NCBI GenBank assembly: GCA_965219205.1
Contig: CBDCMQ010000007.1
Location: forward strand, 3,812 to 67,811
Length of the DNA: 64,000 nt
Reading direction: 5' to 3'
DNA from: Dehalococcoidia bacterium
GTDB lineage: Bacteria; Chloroflexota; Dehalococcoidia; DSTF01; WHTK01
The notes below the pieces were generated by a model. That model had not been told where the DNA came from and ran no database searches. It saw only the letters and a list, made by a program, of their open reading frames with translations. The translations under genes were made by a program, and so were the position numbers. Of this stretch, positions 11,993-58,798 are shown piece by piece (position 1 is the stretch's first letter; each line of letters begins with the position of its first letter).

Positions 11993-11996
11993 TTTT

Positions 11997-27527: not shown

Positions 27528-28067
27528 CTAGCCGCGCGAGTCGTAATCTGCCCGGCTTAGTTCATAAACCACGACTTCCACCTCTTCGCCGTCCATCTCC
27601 TGGCGCCGCTCGGCGATCTGCTTCATGCCGGCCTTTTCCATCACCCGCCGGCTGGCAATGTGGTCCGGGAAGGTGTCCGCTTCCACAGCCTCAACCTCCG
27701 GCAGCGTGAACAGGTATTCGATCAGGCGCCGCGTGGCCTCCGTTGTGTACCCTTGGCCCCGCAACGACTCGACTAATGAGTAGCCGATGGAGGCCCGTGA
27801 GGCTTCTTTCCCCAGAGAGTAGCCCGCCTCGCCGATCAGCGCGTCGTCAGACTTTCGAATAATGAACCAGGGCGAGAAACCGCTGGTCTCGTTGCTACGC
27901 TCTCCGGCCAGCAGGTCCATCACCTCGAGCGAAAACTGGCTCGGATAGCCATCGGCCAGCGGCATGCCCTCGGGCATGCCGCTGGCCAGGAACGCCTTCG
28001 CCTCCTCCTGAGTGATCTGGCGCAGGCGCAGCCGTTCAGTTTCCAATTCTTCCATGGGGTCAGTCAA
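27528..28067 (-). CDS. GNAT family N-acetyltransferase (RimJ/RimL-like)
   Basis: 179 aa acetyltransferase fold motifs; overlaps amidase stop. Confidence 0.65.
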   Translation of the reverse strand: MTDPMEELETERLRLRQITQEEAKAFLASGMPEGMPLADGYPSQFSLEVMDLLAGERSNETSGFSPWFIIRKSDDALIGEAGYSLGKEASRASIGYSLVESLRGQGYTTEATRRLIEYLFTLPEVEAVEADTFPDHIASRRVMEKAGMKQIAERRQEMDGEEVEVVVYELSRADYDSRG

Positions 28068-29568: not shown

Positions 29569-29575
29569 GGCTTCC

Positions 29576-31366
29576 TCAGACTGCCGCGAATAGGTCCGTC
29601 TCCTTCATCTGATATTGATACCAACAGTTGAAAACAAACCATTGCCAGGCTTCCTTGTCCACTCGCTTTCGCCTGGTCCCGGCGTTCTTCTCCAGCCAGG
29701 CCATGTACTCGCCTTTGATGATGCCATCGTTAACCAGGACCTCAAGACTTGGGATCAGCATCCGTTGGAGCCAACCCGGCAGCGGCAGACCAGGAAAGCC
29801 GCGCTGCTCGCGTTGCTTAAAGTCGATCCCCAGTTGATCGCCAAAGCTACCTTGGAGCAGCAGCCTATTCTCACCCGACTCCAACCCGCGATGATTCGGC
29901 GGCACCGAGACGATGAAGGACGCGATCTGAGTGTCGAGGTATGGTGTTCGCTCATCGCAGCCCAGGAGCGGCGGTATGTACTGGTAGAAGAGGCTGGTCC
30001 GGTTCAAGGGGGCACGCAGACGCGCCGCCAGCGACAACGCCGGCACATCCTCCAATCCCTCTAGCAGGTCCCGGTTCGCTAGAGCTGCCTCGTCCCAGCC
30101 ACTCAAATCAGCCGGTTGCTTCAGGGCCCGGTTCATTTGCTCCGCATTCATGTATTTTGGTGGGCCAAACAGGACTCGCAGCGCTTCGTCTCGGGATTCG
30201 GCCAGGGCTGGTTCTAAGCTCCCCTCGTTCTTCATCCGCCGCACGCGGTCCATGGCGAATAGGGGAGTTCCGCCACTCAGAATCGAGTCGAAACCGGCCT
30301 CCGATGCGGCCTGCATTAGGAAGTACTCGCCGACCACTCGCGATCCCGCCTCAAAAGGCTCATCGATTTGGCGCATCAATCGCGACATCAGCTCAGGAGT
30401 GACCTCGGCCTCCGCATCGACCAGCAACGTACGTTGAGGCGAGTTCACGGCTTTCGCCACCCGTTCCGCCCACTGAATTTCGTACTCGCTTTCGTGGCCC
30501 TTGAAGGCCAAGGTTAAAGCCAAAGTGTTGGAGACGCCGTTTTCCTTCAGGGCAGCCAAGATCACTGAGGAATCAATGCCACCGCTAAGGAGTACTCCGA
30601 CGCCGGAAACACCGCCGACAGCCTGCTCGGTGGCTCGCAGGCTTTCGCTGCGCGCCCGTTTCACCCAATGTTCTAAATCCTCAGGACCGCTTTCCGGACT
30701 GGCTCGCCAGTAACGTCTGCTTTGCGTTTCTTCTGAGGTATAGATCCGGCACTCGGCCGCGCGGAGTTTGCGAACATTTTTCGCCGGGGTCAACGGCGCC
30801 GGCGTTGCGCTGATGCCCAAATTGAGTGCCAAACCTCGCTGATCCAGGCCCCGCGGCACAGCAGGATGCGCCAGCACTCCCTTGAGTTCGGTGGAAAACA
30901 CCAGCAGGCCGAGCTCCGGAGCCTCGTAAAAATAAACCAGTTTGTGGTCCATAGGGTCGCTGCTCAGATAGAGCACTTTTGGGCTTCGGTCCCAAAGGAA
31001 CAGGCTGAAAATGCCATCGAGTGCGGACGGAAATGCCTCCGCATTCTGCTCAAAGCTTGCCACGACTGCACCGGCATGTGGGCTCTTAAAAGACGACGCT
31101 CGCTCCCGGAGATGCGACGCGGTGTCATAGATGTCTCCGTCCACCGCCGCGACGAAAGCATCGTCCTCGTGCCCGGATGGAACGTCCTTGCGCTGAGCAA
31201 ATGTGGCGGTGTGGCAGTAGCCAACGGCAATTCCTTCGGCCGGATCCACGAATGTCTCGCGTCCATCCCGGGCTCGATGGCCGCTGACGCTCATCATTAG
31301 CTCAAGCGCTTCCGCTGAAGCCACGTCGGGATTTTCTCTACTCAGGATGCCGCAAATCAGGCTCAA
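29576..31366 (-). CDS. Asparagine synthetase B-like amidotransferase/ATP-pyrophosphatase homologue
   Basis: N-terminal ..LICGILSRENPD.. (Cys at position 5 from a TTG start), PP-loop SGGIDSS; 596 aa. Confidence 0.75.
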   Translation of the reverse strand: MSLICGILSRENPDVASAEALELMMSVSGHRARDGRETFVDPAEGIAVGYCHTATFAQRKDVPSGHEDDAFVAAVDGDIYDTASHLRERASSFKSPHAGAVVASFEQNAEAFPSALDGIFSLFLWDRSPKVLYLSSDPMDHKLVYFYEAPELGLLVFSTELKGVLAHPAVPRGLDQRGLALNLGISATPAPLTPAKNVRKLRAAECRIYTSEETQSRRYWRASPESGPEDLEHWVKRARSESLRATEQAVGGVSGVGVLLSGGIDSSVILAALKENGVSNTLALTLAFKGHESEYEIQWAERVAKAVNSPQRTLLVDAEAEVTPELMSRLMRQIDEPFEAGSRVVGEYFLMQAASEAGFDSILSGGTPLFAMDRVRRMKNEGSLEPALAESRDEALRVLFGPPKYMNAEQMNRALKQPADLSGWDEAALANRDLLEGLEDVPALSLAARLRAPLNRTSLFYQYIPPLLGCDERTPYLDTQIASFIVSVPPNHRGLESGENRLLLQGSFGDQLGIDFKQREQRGFPGLPLPGWLQRMLIPSLEVLVNDGIIKGEYMAWLEKNAGTRRKRVDKEAWQWFVFNCWYQYQMKETDLFAAV

Positions 31367-45427: not shown

Positions 45428-45653
45428 AGGGTCAGCTCTGAAGACCAGCCATCTATCAAAGTTCAAGAGGTCAATTTGTCGGGCTGGAGAGGCCTGCGGC
45501 TGCGCCTCAAGCCGGCGGTCGAGTCCTGAGCCTAAGACTGGGCGGTGCGGAGGCGTTTTTTCTAGTCTCGCTACTCTGCGTGGCGCCAAGTCGACAAAAA
45601 AGATCTTCGTTTTGGGTATTTCATGATGTTAATCAATAACATATGCTGCTACC

Positions 45654-46259
45654 ATGAAACGCAACTACGACGGAACTCGCCGGGCTGATGCCGCTAAACG
45701 TACCCGCGACCAGATTGTCGCCGCCGCCTTTCGGCTCCACGGTGGCGGCATCATCGATATGGACGCCCTGGCCGACGAAGCAGACGTGTCCGGCGCCACC
45801 GTCAGAAAACATTTCCCCACACGCGAGACCGTCTTCGAGAACTGCACGGCCTATGGTTTCCACCTCGTTCCAGCGCCAGACCTGGAACTAATTCGCCAAA
45901 TCGAAGACCCTGCTGGCCGAACGCGGCAGGCAGTCCACGAAGCATATTCCTTTCACGAGGCTCTTCTCGGCCAAACCTGGAGCTCATTCAAGTACGAGCA
46001 CGAGTCACCTGCCCTGGCAAACGCGCTGGTTCAGATGGAAAACTTAACCTCACTGATCGCCGGGGCCGTTCTCGAAGTTTGGCCCAGCGCCGATCACACC
46101 AGTCGTGGCCTGCTTCTCGCTATGCTCGGCCCACTGAGCTACCGTGCTCTGCGGGTGGACGGCGGTCTAACATTGGCCAAGGCAATCGACCAAACTACCG
46201 CCATGCTGGTCGGCGTTTTGACCAGCGGCGCTTCCCGAGAGGAGGCTGCTTATCGTTAA
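45654..46259 (+). CDS. TetR/AcrR-family transcriptional regulator
   Basis: N-terminal HTH ..TRDQIVAAAFRLHG..; 201 aa. Confidence 0.75.
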   Translation: MKRNYDGTRRADAAKRTRDQIVAAAFRLHGGGIIDMDALADEADVSGATVRKHFPTRETVFENCTAYGFHLVPAPDLELIRQIEDPAGRTRQAVHEAYSFHEALLGQTWSSFKYEHESPALANALVQMENLTSLIAGAVLEVWPSADHTSRGLLLAMLGPLSYRALRVDGGLTLAKAIDQTTAMLVGVLTSGASREEAAYR

Positions 46260-46413
46260 CATCGCCTTCGCCCGGAGCTAACCGTCGAACAAGAAGATTC
46301 ACATGAGCTGCTGGTTTAGCAGACTGGTTTCTTGCGTCGAAAATTTGGCGGCGCTCACCTCGGAGCAAGCCAAAATCTACAGTGAAGAATGAGCAATCAG
46401 GAGGAATCCACAA

Positions 46414-47220
46414 ATGGAAAAGCCGATCAAAGTTACGCATGACATTCACGTACTACCATCTCATTTCCCCATTCCCGGCCTCGGAGTGGTGCCGGTGAAC
46501 GCTTTCGTCCTCAAGGCAGAGCAACCCGTCTTGGTCGACACGGGTCTGCACCAGGACAGTGGCACCTTCCTTGAAGCGCTGGAGTCGGTCATTGACCCAC
46601 CCGACCTGCGTTGGCTCTGGCTCACTCACACGGACCAAGACCACGTCGGCAGCCTCAGGGCCATACTCGACCTGCTGCCCGACCTCCGTCTGGTCACTAC
46701 ATTTCTAGGCTACGGCATTTTGAGCCTCTTCGAGACGGTGGCGCTGGACCGGATCTACCTGCTCAATCCAGGCCAACAACTCGATGTCGGCAACCGGACC
46801 CTAACCGCGGTGAAACCACCTACCTTCGATAATCCGGCGACTACCGGCTTCTTTGACAGCAAGTCAAGGGCGCTGTTCAGCTCCGACTGTTTTGGCGCCC
46901 TTCTCTCAGCCCTAGCCCATGACGCGCGTGAACTCGATGAATCTACGCTTCGCGAGCAGATGACACTGTGGACGAGCCTAGATTCGCCCTGGCTCCACAA
47001 GGTTGATCAGGGGAAATTCGCCAACGAGCTCGAAAACGTCCGTCAGCTCGAGGCTGAGCTTCTGCTAAGCTCCCACCTGCCACCAGCGCGTGGTCTCATC
47101 AACGCCTTCCTGGCCAATCTCGCCGGCGTGCCGGACGCCGCACCTTTCGTCGGACCCGATCAGGAGCCTCTTACGGCGATGCTCGCGGGCATGACCGGCG
47201 GAACAGCCGCCCCCGCCTGA
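46414..47220 (+). CDS. MBL-fold metallo-hydrolase
   Basis: ..LTHTDQDHVG.. (HxHxDH-type motif). Confidence 0.7.
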   Translation: MEKPIKVTHDIHVLPSHFPIPGLGVVPVNAFVLKAEQPVLVDTGLHQDSGTFLEALESVIDPPDLRWLWLTHTDQDHVGSLRAILDLLPDLRLVTTFLGYGILSLFETVALDRIYLLNPGQQLDVGNRTLTAVKPPTFDNPATTGFFDSKSRALFSSDCFGALLSALAHDARELDESTLREQMTLWTSLDSPWLHKVDQGKFANELENVRQLEAELLLSSHLPPARGLINAFLANLAGVPDAAPFVGPDQEPLTAMLAGMTGGTAAPA

Positions 47221-47232
47221 TCCTGGGAGCCC

Positions 47233-47287
47233 AAAAAAGTCACGGCTTGAGAGGACTGTGTTAATGCTTCCCAAGCCGTGACTTTTC
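47233..47287. terminator. Bidirectional terminator-like hairpin between convergent genes (aaaagtcacggcttg ... caagccgtgactttt)
   Basis: 15-bp perfect stem flanked by A/T runs. Confidence 0.5.
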
Positions 47288-47476
47288 ATGAACCAAGCCC
47301 AACGATACCTTCGGACGCGGATTCGCATCGCTGGCCGTACCCTTCACCCAACGGCAATTCTGGGTGATTCGGGTTTGTGCACCACGCGCCGCAGGTGAGG
47401 TCGGGCTGGGACTGGCCAGTGCAGCCAGATCACAGGCAGCATCCGGCGATGAAGATTGCCAAAGAATCCCCATCCA

Positions 47477-47980
47477 TTAACCCAGCTGCCTGACATAGAA
47501 AAACATATCCACGTCTCCCGGCGATTGGCCGAGCTGGGTCAACCGCACGCTGGCTTCGCTGCGAAACTGCGTGCCGTGATTGACCACGTGAGCGATCATT
47601 GCCCATAGCGGCTGGGTTTCAGTCGGGCCGTCTCTAAGGGAAAAACTAACCGGCCCGGCAACCTGCTCATCGCTAAGCCCGGCGAGGAAAGCGCGCTGCC
47701 TCTCCTCCTCGCCGACCCAGTGTTCACGTAGCTTCGCCAAGTCCGGCGTGTTCTCTGGATTCAGGCGCTCCGGCGCCACATCGCCGCGCCAGCGCGCCAC
47801 CCAACCACGCTCGGCACCGAGCGTGTGCAACAGCGTGGTATGCAGACTGCCAAAACTGAGACCGTCAGCCGTCGCAAAGTAGTCCGCGTCACTAACCTCG
47901 GCCGACTTATCCAGCACCAATTTGTTGGCCCATGCGTTGTAGTCGAAAAGCAGCCGAGCGTACTCGTTGTTCATCGCCAT
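47477..47980 (-). CDS. DinB/YfiT-like family protein
   Basis: ..YARLLFDYNAWANKLVL.., ..HVVNHGTQFRSE.. Confidence 0.55.
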   Translation of the reverse strand: MAMNNEYARLLFDYNAWANKLVLDKSAEVSDADYFATADGLSFGSLHTTLLHTLGAERGWVARWRGDVAPERLNPENTPDLAKLREHWVGEEERQRAFLAGLSDEQVAGPVSFSLRDGPTETQPLWAMIAHVVNHGTQFRSEASVRLTQLGQSPGDVDMFFYVRQLG

Positions 47981-48127
47981 TCCCTCAATTCCATGATCTA
48001 TCGCCAGGGATTTCCTCGCCGCGGTTCGCGTCTTCAACGCTGTCGTGATTATAGGTGTTTGGCCTGCCTCGTCGGCTAAAATCACACTGTTCAACTTCAC
48101 GCGAAAGGAAAGCCAGGAGGAGAAGAA

Positions 48128-49045
48128 ATGCCGCCAAAGCTAGGGTTGATCATCCCGACAAACTTCGGCCCTGACGCTCCGCCAACCGTCGACCTTAGCC
48201 GCTTCTGTGCTCGCGCCGAGGAACTGGGTTTTGACTCTCTTTGGATTATCGACCGCCTTTTCCATCAGTACGGCGTTCCCCATCCCTTCGTCATGCTCAG
48301 CTACGCCGCGGCCGCAACTCAAACCATCGGCGTCGGGTCCGGTGTTATCCTACTCAGCGTCCGTCACCCGGTAGAAGTCGCCCAGCAGGCCGCCACCCTC
48401 AACGCTATGTCCGGCGAAAGACTCACTCTCGGCGTCTCCCAAGGCGGTCGGGACAACGAATACCTCGCGACCAACATGCCCAAGGACCAGCGCACGGGAC
48501 GCCTTGTTGAAGGCGTCAGGATTATGCGCCGTCTCTGGAGCGAAACGGATGTGACATTCAAGGGGCGCTATTACAACTTGGAGGGCGCCAATATCGAGCC
48601 CAAACCGGCACGCCACGGCGGCATTCCCCTGATCTTTGGTGGCTCAACCGCCCCATCTTTCAGGCGGGCGGGCCGCATCGCCGATGGCTGGATGCAGGGC
48701 GCCCGAGGCACGCCCGAAAGTTTCGCCGCGTCCTGGAACACGGTGATCGAGGGAGCGCGCGAGGCCGGGCGCGATCCTTCGACTCTCCATAGCAGCAAGC
48801 TTATGTATGTCAATCCCGGCCAGGATGAGCAAGCCGCGTCAGAACAGCTGGAGAGCTATCTCTCCTTCTACTACGGACCCAACTACCCCATGGAGCACAC
48901 CGGCTTCGGCGATCCAGCCGGCATAGCCGCCAAGGTCAGTGCTTTCGGCGATGCCGGTTGCGAACTGATGATCCTCGGCCTGCCCGGCCCTGATCTAGCG
49001 CAACTCGAAGCGCTGGCGTCTCAGGTCGTGCCCTTGGTGCGGTAA
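48128..49045 (+). CDS. LLM-class (luciferase-like) flavin/F420-dependent oxidoreductase
   Basis: ..FDSLWIIDRLFHQYG..LTLGVSQGGRDNEYLA.. LLM fold signatures; 305 aa. Confidence 0.8.
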   Translation: MPPKLGLIIPTNFGPDAPPTVDLSRFCARAEELGFDSLWIIDRLFHQYGVPHPFVMLSYAAAATQTIGVGSGVILLSVRHPVEVAQQAATLNAMSGERLTLGVSQGGRDNEYLATNMPKDQRTGRLVEGVRIMRRLWSETDVTFKGRYYNLEGANIEPKPARHGGIPLIFGGSTAPSFRRAGRIADGWMQGARGTPESFAASWNTVIEGAREAGRDPSTLHSSKLMYVNPGQDEQAASEQLESYLSFYYGPNYPMEHTGFGDPAGIAAKVSAFGDAGCELMILGLPGPDLAQLEALASQVVPLVR

Positions 49046-49160
49046 AAGGACAGAGGCCGCTCCTCCGGCACGCGCCAGCCGGATAACTCCGCTTCTGAAG
49101 CTTTCGCCAGTTTACAATCGCTATCAGGAGGTTTGATTTGCCAGGCGTGGGTCAACTTCT

Positions 49161-51029
49161 ATGAGCACGATATTCGGGATTTTCAGCCCGAAGAACCCGG
49201 ACCTATTCTCGACCGACCATCTGGCGGCCATGGCCGCCGCGATGCGCCATTCCAGCCCCATGACGAAGACATTCGCGGATCCGGCTGCTGGAGCAGGGCT
49301 GGGCCTTGCCTACATACCCGCATTCCTCGCCTCCGGTGAGGCCGGCGAGCCGGCCTGGCTGGATGACGAAAATCTTCTCGTTGCTCTGGCTGGAACCCTT
49401 GATCTCAATGTCATTCCGGACCACGCGACCAACGGCCACAACGCTCAGGCTATCGCCGTGAAAGACCAATACGAAGCCGCTGACGAAAACTTTCCCCTTG
49501 GCCTTGACGGAGTCTTCAACCTCGCGGTTTGGGACAAAGGCAAAGCAGCCCTGACTCTCGCAACCGATATTCTCAGAAATCGGCCGCTCTACTATCATCA
49601 CAACCCGGTCACTGGCTACTTCGCCTTTGCTTCAGAGCTGAGCGCACTGCTTCGATTGTCCACCGTGCTTCGTGAAATCGACTACGATGGCCTCGCGAGC
49701 TACTTGGTGATTGGCTATGTGCCTGCGCCATTTATGATCGTCCGCGACATCCGCACGGCTCTCCCCTTTGAAAAACTGACGCTTGATCGGGCGGGACAAT
49801 TGGCCAGCAAGCGCTACTACCGCCTGCCCCTGGCTGAACCGGGCCCACTTGACCTCGATTATTGGACGCCTCGCCTGGAACAAGAACTGGTTGGCGCCAT
49901 GGAGCGCGTCACCAGAAAGACACCGGCGATCGCACTAGCGTTTAGCGCTGGTGTCGACTCGGCTGCGGTTTTGGCCGCCTTGCGCGAACTGGGCGGACCC
50001 CATGTAACCGCAATCACGGTCGCCTACCTTGACGGAGTCGAGAATGAGATCGAACCGTCGGCGACGCTGGCCCGCTCTTTAGGAGCGGAACCCCTCGAAC
50101 TTCTTGTGCGGCCGGCTGAGCTGACGCCGGAGCTGCTGTCAACCGCGTTTCGCCAATTTGACCAGCCGGTTGACACTTTTTCACGTGGCCCAACTCAGTA
50201 TTTACTCGCCGCCGCCGCCCAGAAGCAGGGAATCACTGCCTGCGTGACGGGGTTGCTGGGAGAAAATGTGATCGGCGAGCTGTCTTGGGAGCCTGGCCTG
50301 CGAAGGCTCGCCAAACGAAGCCCTCAAACCGCCGGGGACAATCTCATCCTGCGCTTGCTTGCCGATGGCAAAGATTTTTTCACCACAGCCGACCTCAAGA
50401 CCATCATGCGCCCGGAAATTTCGATTGATGCCGATGGCCGCGCCCAAATCAGCCGGGCAATCGACAAACTTACTGTTGGTGTCTCCGGCAACCCGGAATT
50501 CGAAGCGTATATGAACTTCACCGTTCTGCTTGCTCGTACCGGCAATCTTTCGGTTGCCGGTCAGGTAATCCCAGTCCTCCTTGGTGTCGAAGAACGGGCC
50601 GCCTTCGCTGACCGCAGGCTTTGGGAATTTGTTCAATCGATTCCTGCAGACCATAAGAGCAGCGATACTAGTAAAGGACGCAAGCGAGCCCTGCTCACCG
50701 CCGCTTTCCAGGAGCAGTTGGCCACGGAAGGCCAAGGGCGTGTACATAGGCGGGACAAGGGCTCTTATCCGGGTGTGCCCTGGCACGCTCAGCCGTGGTT
50801 CGAAGCATTGGTGCTCCGACAGGCGAAGCGCGCAGCTGGCGAAGGATTGATCGAGCCGAATGCAGTAGAGAAGGTTCTCCGAAAACACAACGAGCGTCGT
50901 GCCAAGCGCGACAAGAAAAACGTCTGGCATCTCTTCGTCCTTCAAGCTTGGCTGGACTTCCACTTCAACGACATCGATCCGTTCGAAGAGTCGCCAGAAC
51001 CAACACTTGGCGAGACCTTCTATGAGTAG
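49161..51029 (+). CDS. Asparagine synthetase B-like protein lacking the N-terminal Cys nucleophile (MSTIFGIF..), PP-loop present
   Basis: In-frame stop 25 nt upstream fixes the start; ..FSAGVDSAAVLAAL.. PP-loop; 622 aa. Confidence 0.75.
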   Translation: MSTIFGIFSPKNPDLFSTDHLAAMAAAMRHSSPMTKTFADPAAGAGLGLAYIPAFLASGEAGEPAWLDDENLLVALAGTLDLNVIPDHATNGHNAQAIAVKDQYEAADENFPLGLDGVFNLAVWDKGKAALTLATDILRNRPLYYHHNPVTGYFAFASELSALLRLSTVLREIDYDGLASYLVIGYVPAPFMIVRDIRTALPFEKLTLDRAGQLASKRYYRLPLAEPGPLDLDYWTPRLEQELVGAMERVTRKTPAIALAFSAGVDSAAVLAALRELGGPHVTAITVAYLDGVENEIEPSATLARSLGAEPLELLVRPAELTPELLSTAFRQFDQPVDTFSRGPTQYLLAAAAQKQGITACVTGLLGENVIGELSWEPGLRRLAKRSPQTAGDNLILRLLADGKDFFTTADLKTIMRPEISIDADGRAQISRAIDKLTVGVSGNPEFEAYMNFTVLLARTGNLSVAGQVIPVLLGVEERAAFADRRLWEFVQSIPADHKSSDTSKGRKRALLTAAFQEQLATEGQGRVHRRDKGSYPGVPWHAQPWFEALVLRQAKRAAGEGLIEPNAVEKVLRKHNERRAKRDKKNVWHLFVLQAWLDFHFNDIDPFEESPEPTLGETFYE

Positions 51030-51173
51030 CAAACCAAAATCGGCGCGCTGCATCGTCCTCTCCTATACTCCTAGCAGCGAAACGGCGCTCAAAAAAACTG
51101 CCCTTTCGACAGCCTGAGGCCGCGCGCCCTGGCTGCAATCCAACATAGCCCCGCCTCAGAAAGGCAAGAATGA

Positions 51174-52295
51174 ATGTCAAATAAAATTCGAGTGGGAATT
51201 GTCGGAGCCAGTGTGAGTGGCGGTGGCAGCAGCTGGGGCGAGAGAGCCCACATTCCTGGCCTACAAGCGCTGCCAGATTACGAAATCAAAGCGGTTTGCA
51301 CCGCCCACGAAGAGACTGCGAAGGCTTCGGCCGAAGCCTTCGGCGCCGAGTTTGCCTTCGCTGACATCAACCAGATGGTGGCCCATCCTAACCTCGATTT
51401 GATTGTGGTCTCGGTGCGAGTTCCTGTTCATCGCGATCTAGTAATGGCTGCCCTGAAGGCCGGCAAGAACACATTCTGTGAGTGGCCTTTAGGCGCCAAC
51501 TTGGCGGAGGCGGAGGAGATGAGCCGTGAAGCGCGCCAGTATGGCTTGCAGACGATGGTCGGCCTCCAGGCCCGAAGCGACCCAGCCTTGCTTTATGCAC
51601 GCGATACCATTCAGCAGGGCAAGATCGGTGAAGTCCTGACCGCAAATCTCACAGTGTTTGGCGCCGGTCAGATCGAACGCCCGCCGGACCGCGCCTGGGC
51701 CGCCGATCGCGACGCCGGCGCCAACACACTAACCATTGCTGCCGGCCACAATATCGACACGCTCTGTTTCCTCCTCGGCGAGTTCACTGAGGTCACGGGA
51801 AGGGTTGCAACGCGCGTCAAAGAGTGGCGCCTTAACGACACTGGCGGCAGCGTTAAGGTCGATGCACCCGATAGCGTTGCCTTCGCCGGCCGCCTGCAAA
51901 GCGGCGCGGAAGTCTCGGTGAATGTCTTGTCCATGCCGGCCGCTCAAGGCGGCGTACGCCTGACGGTATTTGGACACGAAGGCACCCTTAGCGTTGGCAC
52001 GGCCATGATGACCAACATTGGCCCCAACTTGCTCTCCCTGGCTCGCCCCGGCGCTGCTCCTGAGGAGCTGCCCGTGCCGGACAGCTATAAACTGGTACCG
52101 GAAGGAACACCATCGGGCCCACCGCTCAACGTGGCGCAGGCCTACGTCCGCTTTTCCGACACAGCCAACGGCTCGTCCTCCACAGGCGGTGGGGGCGCGT
52201 TCGACGCCGATTTCCATCTCGCCGTTCGGCGCCATCGCCTGCTGGACGCTGTCGAGCGCTCCTCGAACGAAGGCCGGTTGATTCACCTGCCCTGA
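51174..52295 (+). CDS. Gfo/Idh/MocA-family NAD(P)-dependent oxidoreductase
   Basis: ..IRVGIVGASVSGGG.. Rossmann N-terminus, ..FCEWPLG.. motif. Confidence 0.8.
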   Translation: MSNKIRVGIVGASVSGGGSSWGERAHIPGLQALPDYEIKAVCTAHEETAKASAEAFGAEFAFADINQMVAHPNLDLIVVSVRVPVHRDLVMAALKAGKNTFCEWPLGANLAEAEEMSREARQYGLQTMVGLQARSDPALLYARDTIQQGKIGEVLTANLTVFGAGQIERPPDRAWAADRDAGANTLTIAAGHNIDTLCFLLGEFTEVTGRVATRVKEWRLNDTGGSVKVDAPDSVAFAGRLQSGAEVSVNVLSMPAAQGGVRLTVFGHEGTLSVGTAMMTNIGPNLLSLARPGAAPEELPVPDSYKLVPEGTPSGPPLNVAQAYVRFSDTANGSSSTGGGGAFDADFHLAVRRHRLLDAVERSSNEGRLIHLP

Positions 52296-52433
52296 GCTCT
52301 CGTTCGAGATGCCGGCCTCGCCAGCCCAGCATTGCCGTATCCACAGCCTGTGCTCATTTCCGAGGCCGGACGCCAGCGTTGTATGCGGTCAGATCAGGCC
52401 CGTCGACCCCCGCTGGAATCCACTAATTTTGCC

Positions 52434-52460
52434 GATTCTTTAATGCGGTCTTTAGGAAGC
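52434..52460 (+). promoter_or_regulatory. TTTAG-box-like element (gattctttaatgcggtctttaggaagc) in AT-rich region upstream of ABC exporter operon
   Basis: Resembles ctttagtgaaaatctttagaag upstream of Rieske paralog 4; local AT-richness atypical of coding sequence. Confidence 0.3.
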
Positions 52461-52517
52461 TATAGACAGCGAAACTCTATCTATAAGAGGGCAAGATTCA
52501 CTAATCTGGCTTAACGT

Positions 52518-54284
52518 GTGGCTGGCTTGAGATACGACCGACTTTCCATTTTCAGAGCCGCTAAATTGAGCGCTCCGGGCGGTGATTCTCCAGGTGAGAA
52601 CGCGGCTCCGACCGGCGGCAGTGTCATACGTGGCATGCTTCGTTCGCGCTGGCGCTCCATGGCCGCCGGCTGCGCCTTCATGATGGGCCACCAAACCGGC
52701 GAGTCCTTGGTCCCGGTCGCCATCGGCTTCTTTATCGATCGAGCCGTGCGCAGCGGCGATTACTCGGATCTCCTTCCCGGCGTTCTCGTGCTGATCCTGG
52801 TCTTCGCCGGCCTCTCTAACTCCTGGCGCTTCGGCGCCAAGTTCTTGCAACGCGCCGCTAAGGGAGCCGAGCACGACCTGCGCGTAGCCGTCGTCCGCCG
52901 GGTCCTTGACCCCGCCGGCCCGGCCGAGGGCAACCGCCTGCCCGGCGAGCTGCTCAACATCGCTGCGGTCGATGCCGAACGTGTCGGACGCATCGCCAAC
53001 GTCACCGCAACCGCCTGCGGCGCCCTCGCCGCCCTGGTGGTGACCACTTTTGTCCTACTGCGCATCTCAATACCGCTTGGACTGCTCGTCATCGTCGGGA
53101 CGATTCCCCTGATCGCCTTGATCCAGCTCCTCGGCCGGACGCTCGAAAGAAACAGCGGCACCGAGCAAGCGGAAGCGGCGCGAGCCGCCGGCATCGCCAA
53201 CGACCTCGTTTACGGCCTGAGGGTTCTCAAAGGCATCGGAGCCGAAGACGCGGCCGTCGAACGCTACCGCGGCGCCAGTCGCTCTTCTTTGACCGCCACG
53301 GTCCGCGCCGCCAAAACCCAAGCCACCTACCAGGGCCTCAATATGGCCCTGACCGGCGCCTTTCTCGCCCTGGTTGCCCTGGTCGGTGGCAGATTGGCCG
53401 CCGCCGGTGAAATTAGCATCGGTGACCTGATCGCCGCGCTCGGTCTCACTCAGTTTCTGATCGGGCCGATGCAGCGGCTAACCAACGTCGGCGCCCTGTT
53501 TGCCCGTGGCCGCGCGTCAGCAGCACGCCTTGCCCGAGTCCTAACACCGCCACGAGATGCGGATCGGGTGGCCTCACCCTTGCCCGCCGCGTTCAGCGCC
53601 GAGCTTCAAGTCCACGGGCTCAGCTTCGGGCCCCTTCATGACCTGAATTTTGATATTGCCGAAGGCGAGACAGTTGGCGTCGTCGCGGCCGATCCCAACG
53701 ATGCCCTGTCCTTACTCGATTGTCTAAGCGGCTCTGAGCACCCCAAAACGGGAGAAATACTCCTGTCAAAGATTCCAATAGATGACTTGAGCCCCGCTGA
53801 CCTCCACGCCGCCATCGTGGTAACGCCTCACGAATCCTACCTCTTCGCCGAGACCATGCTCGACAACATTCTTGAACCGGCACCCGATTCAGAGGCCGAA
53901 TGGGCTATTACAGCTTCGGCCGCCGATGAAGTAGCCGAGAACCTGCCGGAAGGTGTCCAGACTGTCGTCAGCGAAGGTGGCCGCTCTTTGTCCGGCGGTC
54001 AACGACAACGTGTTGCCCTGGCCCGCGCCCTCGCCACCATGGCGCCAGTTCTTGTGCTTCACGACCCTACCACCGCGGTTGATTCGGTCACCGAAGCTCG
54101 GATCGCCGCTGGCATCAGCAAAACCCGAGCAGGACGGACAACGATTCTCGTCACTACAAGTCCAGCCCTCTTGGCGGTCACCAGCCGGGTGATCTTTATC
54201 GAGGGCGGTCGTGTGGCTTCGCAGGACAGTCACTCGGCTCTTTTGGATACTCGGCCCGACTATCAAGAATTGGTCGTCACATGA
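52518..54284 (+). CDS. ABC exporter, fused permease + ATP-binding protein (half-transporter 1)
   Basis: 6-TM N-terminus, C-terminal NBD with LSGGQRQRVALARAL signature; ATGA overlap with next gene. Confidence 0.8.
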   Translation: MAGLRYDRLSIFRAAKLSAPGGDSPGENAAPTGGSVIRGMLRSRWRSMAAGCAFMMGHQTGESLVPVAIGFFIDRAVRSGDYSDLLPGVLVLILVFAGLSNSWRFGAKFLQRAAKGAEHDLRVAVVRRVLDPAGPAEGNRLPGELLNIAAVDAERVGRIANVTATACGALAALVVTTFVLLRISIPLGLLVIVGTIPLIALIQLLGRTLERNSGTEQAEAARAAGIANDLVYGLRVLKGIGAEDAAVERYRGASRSSLTATVRAAKTQATYQGLNMALTGAFLALVALVGGRLAAAGEISIGDLIAALGLTQFLIGPMQRLTNVGALFARGRASAARLARVLTPPRDADRVASPLPAAFSAELQVHGLSFGPLHDLNFDIAEGETVGVVAADPNDALSLLDCLSGSEHPKTGEILLSKIPIDDLSPADLHAAIVVTPHESYLFAETMLDNILEPAPDSEAEWAITASAADEVAENLPEGVQTVVSEGGRSLSGGQRQRVALARALATMAPVLVLHDPTTAVDSVTEARIAAGISKTRAGRTTILVTTSPALLAVTSRVIFIEGGRVASQDSHSALLDTRPDYQELVVT

Positions 54285-56086
54285 CCACAACCATAACCGC
54301 GGCCGACGAACGCGTCCTGCTGCCCACAGCCAGCGGTCGCCAAACCCGCGGCACGGTTTGGGATCTGATGCGGCCTTATAGCTCGCGGGCCGTATTGACG
54401 ATTCTGACGCTCGGTCTCGCGAGTACCGCGGGACTGATCGGGCCATTGATGATGGGCCGAATCGTCGACCTGGTCGTCGATGGCCGCCCGGCCAGCGCGG
54501 TCACATCACCGGTCGCGATCCTGCTGGTCGTCGCCGGCCTGCAGGGTCTGCTCACCGTAATCGGCTTTGGCTCGCTCACCAGCCTCGGTGAAACGATGCT
54601 GGCTGACCTGCGCGAACAAGTTGTCGATCGAGCGCTGAACCTCTCTTTGGGCCAAATCGAGGCAGCCGGCAGCGGAGACATCGCCGCGCGCGTCGGCGGC
54701 GATGTCTCCGTCATCGCCAACGCGGTCCGCAACGTTTTTCCGATCTTGATCGGCTCGGTCCTTACGATAGCGCTGACTGTCGGCGGCCTCGCGGTGGTCG
54801 ACTGGCGGTTCGCCCTCGCCGGCCTCTGCGCGGCTCCAGTCCAGCTCCTCACGCTGCGCTGGTACCTCAACCGCTCAACGCCGCTCTTCGCCCGGCAGCG
54901 GGTATTGGAGGGCGAGCGAGCTCAAAAGCTGCTCGACGCTGTCGAAGGCTCGCGCACGGTACGCGCCTTCAGCCTCCACGAGCCCAAAACCGCTATGGTG
55001 GAAGAACGCTCCCAGAGCGCGCTGAACTGGTCATTCATCGTCTTGGCCCTGAGAGTGCGGTTCTTCGCGCGCGTCAACGCGGCAGAATTCGTCGGCGTGA
55101 CGGCGATATTACTCACCGGTTTTTTTCTGGTGCGAGCTGACGCTTCGACGGTCGGCGCCACAACCGCCGCAGCTTTGCTCTTCCATCGAATCTTCGACCC
55201 GGTGTCCGGTCTGCTGCTCAACTTTGACGAGGGCCAGAACGCAGCTTCCGGGCTGGCACGTTTGGTGGGAATCGCTCGTCTGCCGGCCATGGACGATGCC
55301 GAGCCGCCGAGCATAATCGATTCATCCGTAACCGCCACCGGCGTCAACTTTGCCTACATCACCGGCCACGACGTCCTCACTGACATCAACCTCCGAATCG
55401 CCCCTGGCGAACGGATCTCGCTGGTGGGCGCCAGCGGCGCTGGCAAAACTACGCTTGCCAAGCTGCTGGCCGGCATCCATCAGCCCGGCAGCGGCGAAAT
55501 CAAGCTCGGCGGTGTCTCGCATCATGAAGCCAGCTCAGAACTCACCGGCAGCCGCGTGTCCCTGGTCACTCAAGAGGTTCATGTCTTTTCCGGCTCGTTA
55601 GCCGACGACTTGCGTCTGGCCAGGCCCGATGCTTCCGATCAAGATCTTGAAGGGGCCCTGACCAAGGTCGGCGCACTGGCATGGGCTGAAGCCCTACCAC
55701 TGGGCATCAACACGATGGTCGGCGAAGGCGCCTTCCGCCTAACCGCCAGCCAGGCTCAGCAACTGGCCCTCGCCCGCCTGATCCTTACAGACCCGCTGAT
55801 CGCCATTCTCGACGAGGCCACGGCCGAAGCCGGCAGCGCCGGCGCTCGCGTTCTCGAAAGATCTGCCAACGCCGCGCTCGAAGGCCGAACCGCCATTGTT
55901 GTCGCCCATCGTCTAACCCAGGCTCGCCAGGCCGACCGCATTCTAATGATGGACCGCGGCCGCATTATCGAAGCCGGCACCCACGAAGAACTAATCGCCG
56001 CCCGAGGCAGGTACGCGACCCTTTGGGCCGCCTGGTCAGACTCCCGTGACTCCGTCGCCCGGCCTGAAGCCGCGGGGCCGGCTTAG
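54281..56086 (+). CDS. ABC exporter, fused permease + ATP-binding protein (half-transporter 2)
   Basis: Walker A GASGAGKTT, signature region, Walker B ILDEAT. Confidence 0.8.
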   Translation: MTTTITAADERVLLPTASGRQTRGTVWDLMRPYSSRAVLTILTLGLASTAGLIGPLMMGRIVDLVVDGRPASAVTSPVAILLVVAGLQGLLTVIGFGSLTSLGETMLADLREQVVDRALNLSLGQIEAAGSGDIAARVGGDVSVIANAVRNVFPILIGSVLTIALTVGGLAVVDWRFALAGLCAAPVQLLTLRWYLNRSTPLFARQRVLEGERAQKLLDAVEGSRTVRAFSLHEPKTAMVEERSQSALNWSFIVLALRVRFFARVNAAEFVGVTAILLTGFFLVRADASTVGATTAAALLFHRIFDPVSGLLLNFDEGQNAASGLARLVGIARLPAMDDAEPPSIIDSSVTATGVNFAYITGHDVLTDINLRIAPGERISLVGASGAGKTTLAKLLAGIHQPGSGEIKLGGVSHHEASSELTGSRVSLVTQEVHVFSGSLADDLRLARPDASDQDLEGALTKVGALAWAEALPLGINTMVGEGAFRLTASQAQQLALARLILTDPLIAILDEATAEAGSAGARVLERSANAALEGRTAIVVAHRLTQARQADRILMMDRGRIIEAGTHEELIAARGRYATLWAAWSDSRDSVARPEAAGPA

Positions 56087-56242
56087 CCTGATCACCTGCT
56101 AAAAGGGGGCATCCAGCTTGAGCGAGAACCTAGTAATTGCCTTGACAACCTTGTTATTATTAGTCAACCAAAAAGCTCTTTAATGGGACAGTTCTGCCTG
56201 TTCAAATATCTGAAAAAATACGGTCTGTTGGAGGAGTAACTC

Positions 56243-57607
56243 ATGACAATCGCCTATCGAAACGAAGAGATGCTGGGAATGGTCAACCAAGAGACCGGTT
56301 TAGTGGACCGCCGCATCTTCTCCGAGCAGGACATCTATGAGATGGAGCTGGAGCGGATCTTCGCTCGCGCCTGGAACTTCATGTGTCACGACTCGCAAAT
56401 TCCCAACCCGGGTGACTTCTTCATGACACGCATCGGTGAAGACCGGGTCATCGTCGTACACGATAAAGATGGCAGCCCTCAGGTGCTGGTCAACACCTGC
56501 CGCCACCGCGGCAACGCCGTCTGCCGCGCCGAGGAGGGTCACGCAACCTCGTTTATGTGCACTTACCACGGCTGGACTTACGACCTCAAAGGCGCCCTGG
56601 TCGGCGTTCCCGGTTTCAAAGAGGTTTACCACGAGGAACTAGACCGCGACAACTGGGGCTTAATCAAGGCCGCCCAGGTTGAGACCTACAAGGGCTTCAT
56701 CTTTGGCAACATGGACCCTGAGGCGCCGGACCTCAACGAGTACCTCGGTCAGATCGGCCGCATGAGCCTCGATCTGGTCGCCGAGCGCGGCGACGTGACG
56801 ATCTCCGCTGGAATCCAGAAGTACACCATCCCTTGCAACTGGAAGCTCGCGGCCGACAATGTCTGGGACTTCTATCACCCTGGCATCAGCCACGCTTCTT
56901 CGGTCATGAGCGGCGTGAACGCGCGCGCGCGCCCGCCAAACGCGAAAACGCCGCCGCCGCCGAATCAGACTCCGGCCGCCAACCGCGCCTCGCGTCTGAC
57001 TAGCGCTCACATTATTCTTCTTGGTGAGTACGGACACGCTTTGTCCGGCCCTGAGCACAACGATGAAAATGCCGCATCCCGCCAATCGGATGAGACTTGG
57101 CGAGAAAAGCCGGAGGCCCAAGCTGTCCTGGGGCCAATCGGCATGCGAGCCAACTCCCACCCCCACATCTTTCCCAACATGTGGATCACCTACCCCGGTT
57201 TCGCCCAGGTCTGCATGCGTATGCCGAAGGGCCCCATGACAACCGAAATCTGGTGGTTTTCATTCCACGACAGCCAAATGGACAACGATATGAAAGCCTA
57301 CGCCCGTGAGCGGTCCACGCACGTCTTTGGTCCGGCCGGCATGCTGGAGCAGGACGACGGTGAGAACTGGGGCGAAAGCACCCGCGGCATGAAGGGCGTG
57401 GTCAGCAGCAGGTACCCGATCAACTACTCCATGAGCATCGGCCACGGTGAGATCATCGATGATGAAACCGGACCGCCCCGGATTGAGGGCCACGTCAATG
57501 AGCACGCCCAGCTCTGGCACTACCGGGCCTGGTCCGAGTGGATGGCAGCCGACAATTGGTCCCATCTGCGAGATATCCACTCTCGGGTGCCCGAGGACAA
57601 GGTCTAG
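56243..57607 (+). CDS. Rieske oxygenase alpha subunit, alpha-only type (paralog 9)
   Basis: MTIAYRNEEM..CRHRGNAVCRAEEGH..CTYHGW; 454 aa. Confidence 0.85.
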   Translation: MTIAYRNEEMLGMVNQETGLVDRRIFSEQDIYEMELERIFARAWNFMCHDSQIPNPGDFFMTRIGEDRVIVVHDKDGSPQVLVNTCRHRGNAVCRAEEGHATSFMCTYHGWTYDLKGALVGVPGFKEVYHEELDRDNWGLIKAAQVETYKGFIFGNMDPEAPDLNEYLGQIGRMSLDLVAERGDVTISAGIQKYTIPCNWKLAADNVWDFYHPGISHASSVMSGVNARARPPNAKTPPPPNQTPAANRASRLTSAHIILLGEYGHALSGPEHNDENAASRQSDETWREKPEAQAVLGPIGMRANSHPHIFPNMWITYPGFAQVCMRMPKGPMTTEIWWFSFHDSQMDNDMKAYARERSTHVFGPAGMLEQDDGENWGESTRGMKGVVSSRYPINYSMSIGHGEIIDDETGPPRIEGHVNEHAQLWHYRAWSEWMAADNWSHLRDIHSRVPEDKV

Positions 57608-57685: not shown

Positions 57686-58798
57686 CTAATCGATCGTGAA
57701 GGCGCCAACCGAAGAAATTGGCGGCAGGTCGGAAACCAAGCGACGCCATGTGTCGCCCTCGTCCGCGCTGGCATATAGCTGCCCAGTATTGGTACGAAAG
57801 TAAATGCCGGCCGGCTCCAGGCTGTCAGTGCACATCGCTTCGCGATATGTCCCCATGTAGGCACCATCCTGCGGCAGCCCGCTTGCGAGCGGCTGCCAGC
57901 TAGCTCCGGCGTCACGGGTGCGGTAAACGCGTAGCTTGCCCTCCGGGGGACAGCGGAATACATCTGCCTGCAACGGCAGGACATAAGCCGTGTCGGGATC
58001 TTTCGGATGGGCAGCCATCACCAAACCAAAATCGGAAGGCAAGCCATCGGTGATATCAACCCATGTCTCGGCACCATCGTCACTGCGGTAGGTTCCCCAG
58101 TGCGTCTGGGCGTAGAGCCGGTCACCCTTACCAGGCGCGCGCACCAGGTGATGAACGCATTGGCCCACTTCCGGATACAGCTCCGAGCTGGCGTCGTGCT
58201 TCGCCTGGACGCTCTTAATCTTGTGGTTCATCGCCTGCCAGCTGGCGCCGTCGTCCTCGCTGCGAAACACACCGGCCGCGGAGGTCGCGATCCACATTCG
58301 CCGAGCATTCAGTGGGTCCAGGACTATAGAGTGCGTGATCAAACCTCCCGCTCCGGGGTACCACTGATCACGCGTTGGATGGTTGACCAGCGCCTCATTC
58401 TGCGACCAGGTTTCGCCCGAATCGGCCGAACTAAAAAGCGTAGCCGGATCCACACCGCAATAAAACTGACCCGGTTGAGAATCTCGGCCTGGCTCGATCC
58501 GCCAGATTCGCTCGACGGTAAGCCCGGTTGCCGGCGCAAAACGCGGCCGAGAAGCATCTTCCTCCCAGATCGCGCCCAAATCAAGAGAAGTTGCGATTCG
58601 GCTACCAAACCAGGGGTCGTTTGCCGTGGCGTAAATCTTTCCGGTGCGTGGGTCGAGCATCGCATGGTTGACTTCGCTTCCGGGCAAGAACGGCCCTTCA
58701 AGCCCCCACTCGCGGCGCTGACCGTCGTTCTTTAGTAGAAACACACCTTTGCGTGTGCCGAGTACCAGAATGAGCCCAGAGAATCCAGCCACCGCCAT
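57686..58798 (-). CDS. BNR/Asp-box repeat beta-propeller protein (sialidase/Ycf48-like fold)
   Basis: Repeated SxDxGxTW motifs (SADSGETWSQ, SEDDGASWQAM, RSDDGAETWVDI, TRDAGASWQPL, SADEGDTWRRL). Confidence 0.6.
   Translation of the reverse strand: MAVAGFSGLILVLGTRKGVFLLKNDGQRREWGLEGPFLPGSEVNHAMLDPRTGKIYATANDPWFGSRIATSLDLGAIWEEDASRPRFAPATGLTVERIWRIEPGRDSQPGQFYCGVDPATLFSSADSGETWSQNEALVNHPTRDQWYPGAGGLITHSIVLDPLNARRMWIATSAAGVFRSEDDGASWQAMNHKIKSVQAKHDASSELYPEVGQCVHHLVRAPGKGDRLYAQTHWGTYRSDDGAETWVDITDGLPSDFGLVMAAHPKDPDTAYVLPLQADVFRCPPEGKLRVYRTRDAGASWQPLASGLPQDGAYMGTYREAMCTDSLEPAGIYFRTNTGQLYASADEGDTWRRLVSDLPPISSVGAFTID

Follow-up and report, generated by a model that had tools for sequence, protein, structure and literature searches.

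The 8-kb row of co-directional genes analyzed here, which lies in a window of 64,000 nt (the whole stretch of Dehalococcoidia DNA under analysis), probably comprises three independent units, namely an LLM gene, an AsnB2-Gfo gene pair and an ABC exporter operon, which were brought side by side by two lineage-specific deletions and do not belong to one pathway. The AsnB-like protein of the row, AsnB2, would be a glutaminase-dead amide synthetase. A sequence-only reading had taken the row for a single small-molecule module; this was not supported, as the neighbors are not conserved together and both relatives have an S8 protease gene and a block of 4.5-4.7 kb interposed in the row.

Gene layout and history of the gene order

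The six ORFs proposed earlier were all found on the + strand at matching coordinates, and the domain assignments of all six proteins were upheld by Pfam or curated models (Table 1). The gaps are short, as had been described (LLM-AsnB2, 115 bp; AsnB2-Gfo, 144 bp; Gfo-ABC1, 222 bp; ABC2-Rieske, 156 bp), and the ATGA overlap of ABC1 and ABC2 at 54281-54284 reads CACATGACC. The LLM protein passed the F420-type LLM model TIGR03619 with 173.4 bits against a cutoff of 166.9, and its closest solved structures are F420-dependent dehydrogenases. The Rieske protein at the end of the row scored 312 bits with an HcaE-like model (cutoff, 830), and the 3' end alone of its gene is left in L001.

Table 1. Features of the row and the AsnB1 paralogue, in window coordinates.
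Feature	Positions	Strand	Basis or remark
LLM-class oxidoreductase, predicted F420-dependent (TIGR03619 family)	48128..49045	+	Pfam Bac_luciferase, E 8e-59
AsnB2, glutaminase-dead AsnB-like PP-loop protein, N-terminal Ser	49161..51029	+	Asn_synthase and weak GATase_7 (Pfam)
Gfo/Idh/MocA NAD(P)-dependent sugar-type dehydrogenase (Gfo)	51174..52295	+	Pfam GFO_IDH_MocA N- and C-terminal domains
ABC1, TMD-NBD half-transporter, degenerate NBD	52518..54284 (GTG)	+	ABC_membrane and ABC_tran
ABC2, TMD-NBD half-transporter, translationally coupled to ABC1	54281..56086	+	ABC_membrane and ABC_tran
Rieske ring-hydroxylating oxygenase alpha-subunit paralogue	56243..57607	+	Pfam Rieske and Ring_hydroxyl_A
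S8-loss junction	49039..49070		blastn; secreted S8 protease gene (~2.35 kb in L001) missing from window
Block-loss junction	52336..52444		4.5-4.7 kb block of relatives missing from window
Non-coding leader/promoter region of ABC operon, conserved	52445..52565	+	Three-genome alignment
AsnB1, AsnB2 paralogue, same Cys-less family	29576..31366	-	BLASTP and Pfam; outside the row

Orthologues of AsnB2 were found in two related Dehalococcoidia genomes only; the genome scan gave one further orthologue, that of L006, and the metagenome scan returned nothing nearer than 33%. The synteny analysis was based on three informative genomes, i.e., the window, L001 and L006, and the tree by dN was ((window, L001), L006). 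By blastn, window positions 45580-49038 correspond to L001 positions 4097-7559, and window positions 49071-52335 to L001 positions 9913-13170. In both relatives, the S8 protease gene lies between LLM and AsnB2, in L006 as a broken copy, and tblastn for S8 in the window detected none. Similarly, both L001 and L006 have a block of 4.5-4.7 kb that extends from Gfo to the leader of the ABC operon and that the window lacks. This block contains genes for a degenerate-GGDEF protein, a Rieske protein (complete or as a fragment), SNF (in L001) and, on the minus strand, MFS_3, the orthologues of which are 91% identical between L001 and L006, with a best match of 28% in the window. Since the S8 gene and the block are present in both relatives, the window lost both segments, and its compact row is derived by two lineage-specific deletions. 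The ABC pair was deleted in L001, where AsnB2 and Gfo are kept.

The adjacency of AsnB2 and Gfo alone survives, in three close genomes only, and no linkage was found beyond the orthologues. Nine other members of the AsnB2 family stand in unrelated gene contexts. Gfo belongs to a widespread, housekeeping-like enzyme family, with more than 2000 homologues at E<1e-30 and hundreds at 57-67% identity; elsewhere these adjoin an SGL lactonase or other genes and never an AsnB-like gene, and no AsnB-like, LLM or ABC gene adjoins the homologues that are 63% identical.

The AsnB2 protein and its family

AsnB2 starts with MSTIFGIFS, and the earlier observation that it has no N-terminal Cys was borne out by the alignment, in which the entire glutaminase site is gone too. 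The PP-loop FSAGVDSAAV, also reported before, is present along with other adenylation motifs. Alignment with 12 canonical homologues showed that Cys2, the Arg of RLxIxD, NGE and SDTE are missing family-wide, and that SGGxDS, DEP, GVExRxPF and the C-terminal K-G motif are kept across the family. AsnB2 itself carries SAGVDS (G263A), DQP, VEERAAFAD and K533-G; the GxGGDExFxGY motif is not conserved and reads GLLGENVIGEL. The N-terminus of the family is M-[S/G]-x-I-C-G-I, the nucleophilic Cys being replaced by Ser or Gly. HMM alignments against TsnB9 and 1CT9 placed Ser2 of AsnB2 on the nucleophile position (Cys in TsnB9, residue 1 in 1CT9), and the AF2 model of AsnB2 (pLDDT 87.8, pTM 0.91) has a strand at residues 2-8. 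In PurF, the nucleophile is exposed through propeptide removal. A comparable role for the family Cys5, as a nucleophile after removal of a 4-residue propeptide, was rejected, because the HMM alignments favor Ser2, the pocket residues are absent and AsnB2 has Phe5.

The suggestion that AsnB2 is preferentially BLS-, CarA- or lasso-like was not sustained, as profile and fold searches placed it nearer to TsnB9 and AsnB. The profile E-values were 1.9e-67 for TsnB9, 1.5e-44 for AsnB (1CT9), 1.4e-20 for BLS and 7e-12 for CarA. A Foldseek search with the AsnB2 model put TsnB9 on top (TM 0.72), followed by ASNS, BLS, AsnB and CarA, with TM values of 0.52-0.59 for BLS and CarA. AsnB2 failed TIGR01536 (109 bits against a cutoff of 267.1) and scored 37.8 bits with PRK09431 (cutoff, 499). 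The domain order and, allowing for the substitutions in AsnB2, the PP-loop, GVExRxPF and K-G motifs are common to AsnB2, the hydroxyamidotransferase TsnB9 (PDB 7YLZ) and Escherichia coli AsnB (1CT9); however, the canonical enzymes of this type in the alignment keep Cys1 and the glutamine-binding residues, all of which are missing from the AsnB2 family. BLS (1JGT) and CarA (1Q15) have a Cys-less AsnB fold that is similar overall to AsnB2, and their adenylating domain performs intramolecular amide (lactam) closure, with Tyr348, Glu382 and Lys443 as the catalytic residues of BLS. Nevertheless, both are far more remote from AsnB2 in sequence than AsnB and TsnB9, and no clavam or carbapenem partner genes lie near AsnB2. 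The lasso-peptide cyclases (McjC-type, NF033535) are likewise AsnB-derived and Cys-less; they catalyze ATP-dependent amide (isopeptide) formation and are often encoded beside ABC exporters. Unlike them, AsnB2 has an N-terminal domain of full length and no accompanying RRE, leader peptidase or precursor.

An exhaustive profile search returned about 38 top-ranked full-length clusters at 50% identity, none with Cys2, and the canonical MCGI proteins ranked below them. A word-indexed profile search with a 32-member family alignment retrieved almost exclusively canonical AsnBs and, beyond P0001-P0003, no added members; the gene contexts were those of representatives from the exhaustive search. The AsnB2 family is a rare, uncharacterised AsnB-like family, which occurs in Dehalococcoidia and other uncultured bacteria in several copies per genome. 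Automated annotation reads "asparagine synthase (glutamine-hydrolysing)", and there is no curated model for the family; this annotation is a mislabel, and the family probably works as an amide ligase. The window encodes a second member, AsnB1 (28% identity to AsnB2 by BLASTP, E 8e-66), whose gene shares a tight operon with those of an amidase and a GNAT. An amidase was considered as a trans ammonia donor for AsnB2 and discarded, since the adjoining amidase is found only at the AsnB1 paralogue. Dehalococcoidia genomes carry an expanded set of at least 4-5 paralogues each, accompanied by Rieske oxygenases, amidases, GNATs and MFS_3 transporters. In bacteria of other groups, which are probably diderm, a conserved operon encodes a response regulator, an HprK-like P-loop protein, RtcB, the AsnB-like protein, DUF5666 and a tripartite efflux pump.

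An N-terminal Ser is a mark of ligase-type AsnB homologues such as PdmN (bioRxiv 10.1101/2025.10.30.685158). PdmN, from pradimicin biosynthesis, and likewise Tln4/TlnF, proposed to be of this type, have a two-domain AsnB fold, a Cys-to-Ser replacement and a PP-loop adenylating domain, as does AsnB2, a two-domain AsnB-like protein with a Ser N-terminus; the likeness to PdmN refers to this feature. AsnB2 differs from PdmN in having no type II PKS context, and from the PdmN type in the loss of the entire glutamine pocket, beyond the Cys alone. By analogy, chemistry of the PdmN type may be expected of AsnB2, i.e., adenylation of a carboxylate followed by amide formation without glutamine hydrolysis. 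AsnB2 would adenylate a carboxylate with ATP, and the acyl-AMP would then be captured by free ammonia, an amine or an amino acid; the nitrogen would not be derived from glutamine hydrolyzed in cis, as reported for PdmN with its N-terminal Ser.

The exporter operon and its leader

The transporters proved to be paired TMD-NBD half-exporters, as had been proposed, and are encoded by two adjacent, translationally coupled genes. ABC1 has a Walker A sequence without Lys (AADPNDALS), the Walker B sequence LHDP, no H-loop His and a canonical LSGGQ signature; in ABC2, Walker A, Walker B and the H-loop are canonical and the signature is degenerate (LTASQ). Among PDB chains, ABC1 matched TM287, TmrB and BmrC, and ABC2 matched TM288, TmrA and BmrD. 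As in ABC1/ABC2, one NBD of TM287/288, TmrAB and BmrCD is without the consensus Walker A, Walker B and H-loop, and the signature of the partner is degenerate. By their motifs, ABC1 and ABC2 form an ordinary exporter of the heterodimeric kind, in which one ATP site is predicted to be catalytic and the other is degenerate. The Walker A of ABC1 is unusually degenerate compared with these three transporters, and its lack of Lys indicates that the second site may bind no ATP at all.

The GTG start of ABC1 at 52518 is doubtful, because in L006 the frame is conserved only from about residue 12 onward; the TTG at 52566, the same codon position as a GTG in L006, is the likelier start. The 60-codon ORF at 52332-52514 is present with a low GC3 (0.475) and no Pfam hit. 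The relatives differ from it by 1-nt indels, so the frame is not maintained among them, in agreement with the earlier view that it is non-coding regulatory sequence. The AT-rich region in front of ABC1 was likewise confirmed (39% GC at 52425-52517, against 61% regionally). As for the TTTAG-box-like element proposed within it, CTTTAGGAAGC at 52450-52460 is shared by two of the three genomes, with L001 one base off; it is not recurrent in the window, where neither the "TTTAG box" nor the TCTTTAATG motif was enriched.

The three-genome alignment of the leader showed long identical runs interrupted by 1-nt indels, and the leader is kept in L001 although the ABC genes are deleted there. Ancestrally it faced the MFS_3 gene. 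An Rfam scan of the window, leader included, found no family, and scans for promoters and terminators gave no more than expected by chance. The leader has a weak consensus fold (-16 kcal/mol, with 1 covarying pair), and L006 does not share the imperfect palindrome at 52461-52485; accordingly, no riboswitch or operator is claimed.

Alternative readings and significance

AsnB2 is most likely a ligase-type amide synthetase, possibly an eroding one. Its dN/dS was 0.19-0.25, against 0.06-0.11 for the LLM, Gfo and ABC genes (LLM, 0.09; Gfo, 0.065; ABC1, 0.11), and it evolves about 2-4 times faster than the neighboring genes. Such values are consistent with a non-catalytic relic under weak constraint, either a pseudoenzyme or a nascent pseudogene, in which case the locus would have no amide-forming activity. 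AsnB2 also has the lowest GC3 of the row, has a long stem branch in the tree of the family and keeps 35 of the 44 family-conserved positions. Its losses include the PP-loop substitution G263A and residues conserved even among canonical AsnBs, and several pan-superfamily residues (G139R, K161S and K199T) are lost as well, which counts against the enzyme reading; the family Cys5 is gone in the window and L001. In L006, the orthologue has an in-frame TAG at codon 290 and adjoins a multiply broken S8 gene, the gene that was deleted from the window, and five neighboring genes are intact. Even so, decay to a relic appears rather unlikely, since the dN/dS of AsnB2 is far under 1, the ORF of 622 codons is unbroken in the window as in L001 to L004, the AF2 model has high confidence, S262, G264, D266, S267, D334, R479 and K533 are kept, and the retention scores of other family members are similar.

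A dedicated module, in which LLM, AsnB2, Gfo and the ABC pair make and export an amide or lactam small molecule by oxidoreduction and ATP-dependent closure, would fit the co-directional genes with their gaps of 115-222 bp, the Cys-less AsnB-like protein with its intact PP-loop, the adjoining exporter genes and the presence of all the genes in the same neighborhood in L006. It is nonetheless quite improbable. The compact order is derived, with S8 and the block carrying an oppositely oriented MFS_3 gene intervening in the relatives; L001 has AsnB2 and Gfo without the ABC pair; Gfo is common and has other partners elsewhere; AsnB2-family members have unrelated neighbors; AsnB2 is nearer to TsnB9/AsnB than to BLS/CarA; and the ABC operon is preceded by a conserved leader of its own. 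Because the neighbors are not conserved together in the related genomes, the module was largely refuted, and because the row arose through recent deletions, it provides no evidence for one pathway. A stretch of about 12 kb does hold LLM, AsnB2 and Gfo on one strand, together with the ABC pair in two of the three genomes, and given this persistence a loose functional association may exist. A RiPP or lasso-like system, with AsnB2 as the cyclase that closes a macrolactam in a small precursor and with the ABC pair as exporter and immunity pump, is highly improbable and was already largely refuted. The Cys-less AsnB-like protein and paired ABC exporters are in its favor, as are weak matches to lasso-cyclase and macrolactam-cyclase models and, in the relatives, the S8 protease gene and a called 37-codon ORF immediately upstream of AsnB2. 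However, the matches are far under the cutoffs (NF033535, 79.3 bits against 525; NF033561, 20.5 against 300), and the N-terminal domain of AsnB2 is not truncated. The S8 protease carries a signal peptide, and its gene is missing from the window and decayed in L006; the 37-codon ORF overlaps with the 3' end of S8 and is not called in L003; and the small ORF in front of ABC1 is not preserved as a coding sequence. Among the ORFs scanned with Pfam across the window there was neither PqqD/RRE nor a transglutaminase-like peptidase, and no precursor was found within about 10 kb, which agrees with the rejection of a lasso cluster in the sequence-only reading.

In summary, the reading with three independent units is preferred. 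The first would be the F420-type LLM oxidoreductase; the second, the fast-evolving AsnB2 followed by the housekeeping-like Gfo sugar dehydrogenase; and the third, a two-gene heterodimeric ABC exporter operon driven from its own leader, which ancestrally would have faced a divergent MFS_3 transporter gene. The three would be transcribed independently.

It is unlikely, although conceivable, that the Cys-less M-[S/G]-x-I-C-G-I family represents a new class of amide ligases that act alone and independently of glutamine. If this is true, carboxyl groups in complex organic matter might be derivatised or activated by the family members of Dehalococcoidia, and the RtcB/AsnB-like/DUF5666 operon of the other bacteria could be an undescribed ligation or modification system. 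The row is also a cautionary case, in that a neat co-directional arrangement of a Cys-less AsnB homologue and exporters resembles a biosynthetic cluster, yet it was made by deletions and is not conserved. The definition of a glutaminase-less AsnB-like family corrects its annotation and offers a defined target for enzymology.

Gene row and family assignments

The six open reading frames of the row called in the sequence-only reading were all recovered on the forward strand at exactly the same positions, and each was assigned to a family (see the table). The spacers between them were 115, 144, 222 and 156 bp, and the ATGA overlap of ABC1 and ABC2 was confirmed. A 60-codon ORF before ABC1 was also present and, as previously suggested, is not coding, since its GC3 is low (0.475), the family search gave no match and it is broken by 1-nt indels in related genomes.

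Features of the window, with strand and basis of assignment
Feature	Position	Strand	Basis or remark
IS481-type transposase	3534-4607		HTH_28, rve_3, LZ_Tnp_IS481; among upstream Rieske paralogues
Large ORF	13996-15588	-
AsnB1 operon	27528-31366	-
GNAT Acetyltransf_3	27528-28067	-
Amidase-signature enzyme	28060-29568	-
AsnB1	29576-31366	-	second family copy
LLM oxidoreductase, F420-type	48128-49045	+	TIGR03619, 173.4 bits (cutoff 166.9)
AsnB2, AsnB-like	49161-51029	+	Asn_synthase, weak GATase_7 (Pfam/NCBIfam)
Gfo/Idh/MocA dehydrogenase	51174-52295	+	Pfam/NCBIfam
60-codon ORF	52332-52514
Leader	52445-52565		~120-130 nt, non-coding
ABC1, TMD-NBD half-transporter	52518-54284	+	Pfam/NCBIfam
ABC2, TMD-NBD half-transporter	54281-56086	+	Pfam/NCBIfam
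ABC2-Rieske spacer	56087-56242		AT-rich, 42% GC
Rieske oxygenase alpha subunit	56243-57607	+	Pfam/NCBIfam
BNR/sialidase-like gene	57686-58798	-	missing from L001
Insertion relative to L001	59281-61308
Rieske paralogue	59431-60790		two overlapping ORFs (59431-59910, 59786-60790)

Loss of the glutaminase site in the AsnB2 family

When 5.8 billion proteins were searched by word index, only AsnB2 itself, its 83% orthologue and one 29% relative ranked above the bulk of canonical AsnBs. An exhaustive profile search uncovered a distinct AsnB-like family around AsnB2, in which Cys at position 2 was absent from all of the 38 best full-length 50%-identity clusters, and canonical MCGI proteins ranked solely below these. 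The N-terminal consensus of the family is M-[S/G]-x-I-C-G-I-[F/Y]-S-P. AsnB1 is 28% identical to AsnB2 (E 8e-66), and at least four paralogues occur together in a single Dehalococcoidia genome.

When the family was aligned with twelve canonical homologues, the Cys nucleophile, the Arg of RLxIxD, the Asn-Gly-Glu of NGEIYN and the Asp of SDTE were missing in every aligned family member, indicating that the entire glutaminase site, and not just the Cys, has been lost. In the synthetase domain SGGxDS (SAGVDS in AsnB2), DEP (DQP in AsnB2), GVExRxPFxD and the C-terminal K-G were kept, and the canonical GxGGDExFxGY was not. The alignment thus upheld the view of AsnB2 as Cys-less with a retained PP-loop, and both the N-terminus MSTIFGIFS and the loop FSAGVDSAAV were found as described.

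Profile comparison with solved structures ranked TsnB9 (1.9e-67) above E. coli AsnB (1.5e-44), human ASNS, BLS (1.4e-20) and CarA (7e-12), and the family Ser2 fell on the nucleophile position. In the confident AF2 model of AsnB2 (pLDDT 87.8, pTM 0.91) a strand begins at residue 2, and Foldseek gave a TM score of 0.72 for TsnB9 and of 0.52-0.62 for ASNS, BLS, AsnB and CarA. AsnB2 missed all curated NCBIfam cutoffs. Accordingly, of the proposed BLS- or lasso-cyclase-like character, the absence of a glutaminase site held, whereas both comparisons favoured TsnB9 and the score for the lasso cyclase model fell far short (79 bits against a cutoff of 525). An N-terminal Ser is reported to mark 'ligase-type' AsnB homologues, among them PdmN, which joins an amino acid to a carboxylate with no glutamine nitrogen transfer (preprint, bioRxiv 10.1101/2025.10.30.685158). 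AsnB2 shares this Ser start, making the PdmN-like type the nearest functional analogy, with BLS/CarA and lasso cyclases remoter. AsnB2 is best described, as to its predicted activity, as a further member of the known glutaminase-independent AsnB-fold amide-forming enzymes, among which it would most resemble the Ser-start ligase type.

The AsnB1 operon is tight, with a 7-nt gap between AsnB1 and the amidase gene and an 8-nt overlap between the amidase and GNAT genes. The amidase beside the glutaminase-dead AsnB1 suggests a possible GatA-like ammonia donor in trans.

Synteny and composition of the row

AsnB2 orthologues were found solely in two related Dehalococcoidia genomes, at loci L001 to L004 (83%) and L006 (72%; MAG chromosome OZ252017.1), and the closest match in a metagenome scan was 33%. 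The tree by dN in LLM, AsnB2 and Gfo was ((window, L001), L006). In both relatives, LLM is separated from AsnB2 by an S8 protease gene with a signal peptide (~1.9 kb, inside ~2.35 kb of DNA missing from the window), and Gfo from the leader position by a 4.5-4.7 kb block. Within the block lie a gene for a degenerate-GGDEF protein, a Rieske gene or part of one, and an MFS_3 transporter gene in the opposite orientation (91% identical between L001 and L006; no orthologue in the window), plus an SNF transporter gene in L001. As both segments occur in both relatives and are absent from the window, by parsimony the window lost both, and the compact LLM-AsnB2-Gfo-ABC-ABC order is derived. In L001, conversely, ABC1, ABC2 and the 5' portion of the Rieske gene are gone, and the ~130-nt leader remains.

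The ABC1 NBD has degenerate Walker A (AADPNDALS) and Walker B (LHDP) motifs, no H-loop His and a canonical LSGGQ signature, and that of ABC2 has canonical Walker A, Walker B and H-loop with the signature LTASQ, which makes one of the two ATP sites consensus and the other degenerate. ABC1 matched the TM287, TmrB and BmrC chains and ABC2 the TM288, TmrA and BmrD chains; the pair is predicted to be an ordinary heterodimeric exporter. GTG 52518 is a doubtful ABC1 start, and conservation better fits TTG 52566. The leader is conserved in the window, L001 and L006; it matched no Rfam family and showed no convincing RNA fold. Because it ancestrally lay between divergent MFS_3 and ABC1, it marks the ABC pair as a predicted transcription unit of its own. 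The leader may be a bidirectional promoter or an operator. The ABC2-Rieske spacer has a hexamer resembling TTGACA and an inverted repeat (TTGACAACC ... AGTCAACC) that may serve the Rieske paralogue as promoter and operator.

The Gfo family is very common (>2000 matches at E<1e-30, hundreds at 57-67% identity); homologues at 63% identity adjoin SGL lactonase or other genes, and no AsnB-like, LLM or ABC gene was found beside them in the neighbourhoods examined. The neighbours of nine other AsnB-like family members were unrelated to the row, including a sulfotransferase with MFS_3, DUF2330 with cupredoxin, a HAD hydrolase, a glycosyltransferase cluster and an RtcB operon. Given the intervening S8 gene and block, the unlinked Gfo and these contexts, the proposal of one small-molecule module is not supported. 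With differing synteny and no shared linkage beyond orthologues, the neighbours are essentially not kept together in related genomes, which the sequence-only reading had named as grounds for refuting the module. Three units placed side by side describe the row best.

Two family members only 34% identical, P0003 and P0129, share a conserved operon (L005 1-7643; L019 744-11345; L020) in the order response regulator, 361-373 aa P-loop protein (53% identity between the two loci; weak HprK-related kinase matches), RtcB, AsnB-like and DUF5666. OEP, MFP and MacB efflux genes extend it in L019 and L020, and a 76-codon ORF lies upstream in L019. Large ORFs (~450-530 aa) near AsnB-like or MFS_3 genes, in the window and at L008 6885-8435 and L010 6295-9790, had no Pfam/NCBIfam family except for a weak PMT_2 match of the L008 protein.

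The window also contains at least nine Rieske alpha-subunit paralogues, several MFS_3 transporters, amidases and GNATs. The Rieske paralogue at 59431-60790 is probably split by a frameshift. It resembles, in gene content only and with no SAR202 membership implied, the paralogue-rich Dehalococcoidia/SAR202 genomes, where ring-hydroxylating dioxygenases are expanded in group VII (PMC6946804). The IS481-type transposase agrees with a rearrangement-prone region.

Constraint and possible decay of AsnB2

Purifying selection acts on AsnB2, though less strongly (dN/dS 0.19-0.25) than on its neighbours (0.06-0.11). The GC3 of AsnB2 is the lowest in the row, and its branch in the family tree is long and sister to P0122 and P0124. 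AsnB2 keeps 35 of the 44 family-conserved positions; G139R, K161S, K199T and the PP-loop G263A affect positions conserved even in canonical AsnBs, and the family Cys5 is also lost. The L006 orthologue (10001-11869) keeps Cys5, K161 and K199, but its codon 290 is an in-frame TAG, where the others have CTT or GTT. The adjoining L006 S8 gene (7192-9412) has at least two frameshifts and lacks its C-terminal part, and LLM, Gfo, Rieske, ABC1 and ABC2 nearby are intact; these lesions look like localised pseudogenisation, unless they are an assembly error. Because of the weaker constraint, the lost positions and the L006 lesions, the possibility that the S8-AsnB2 segment is eroding in this lineage must be weighed seriously against that of an active enzyme, and AsnB2 may be decaying.
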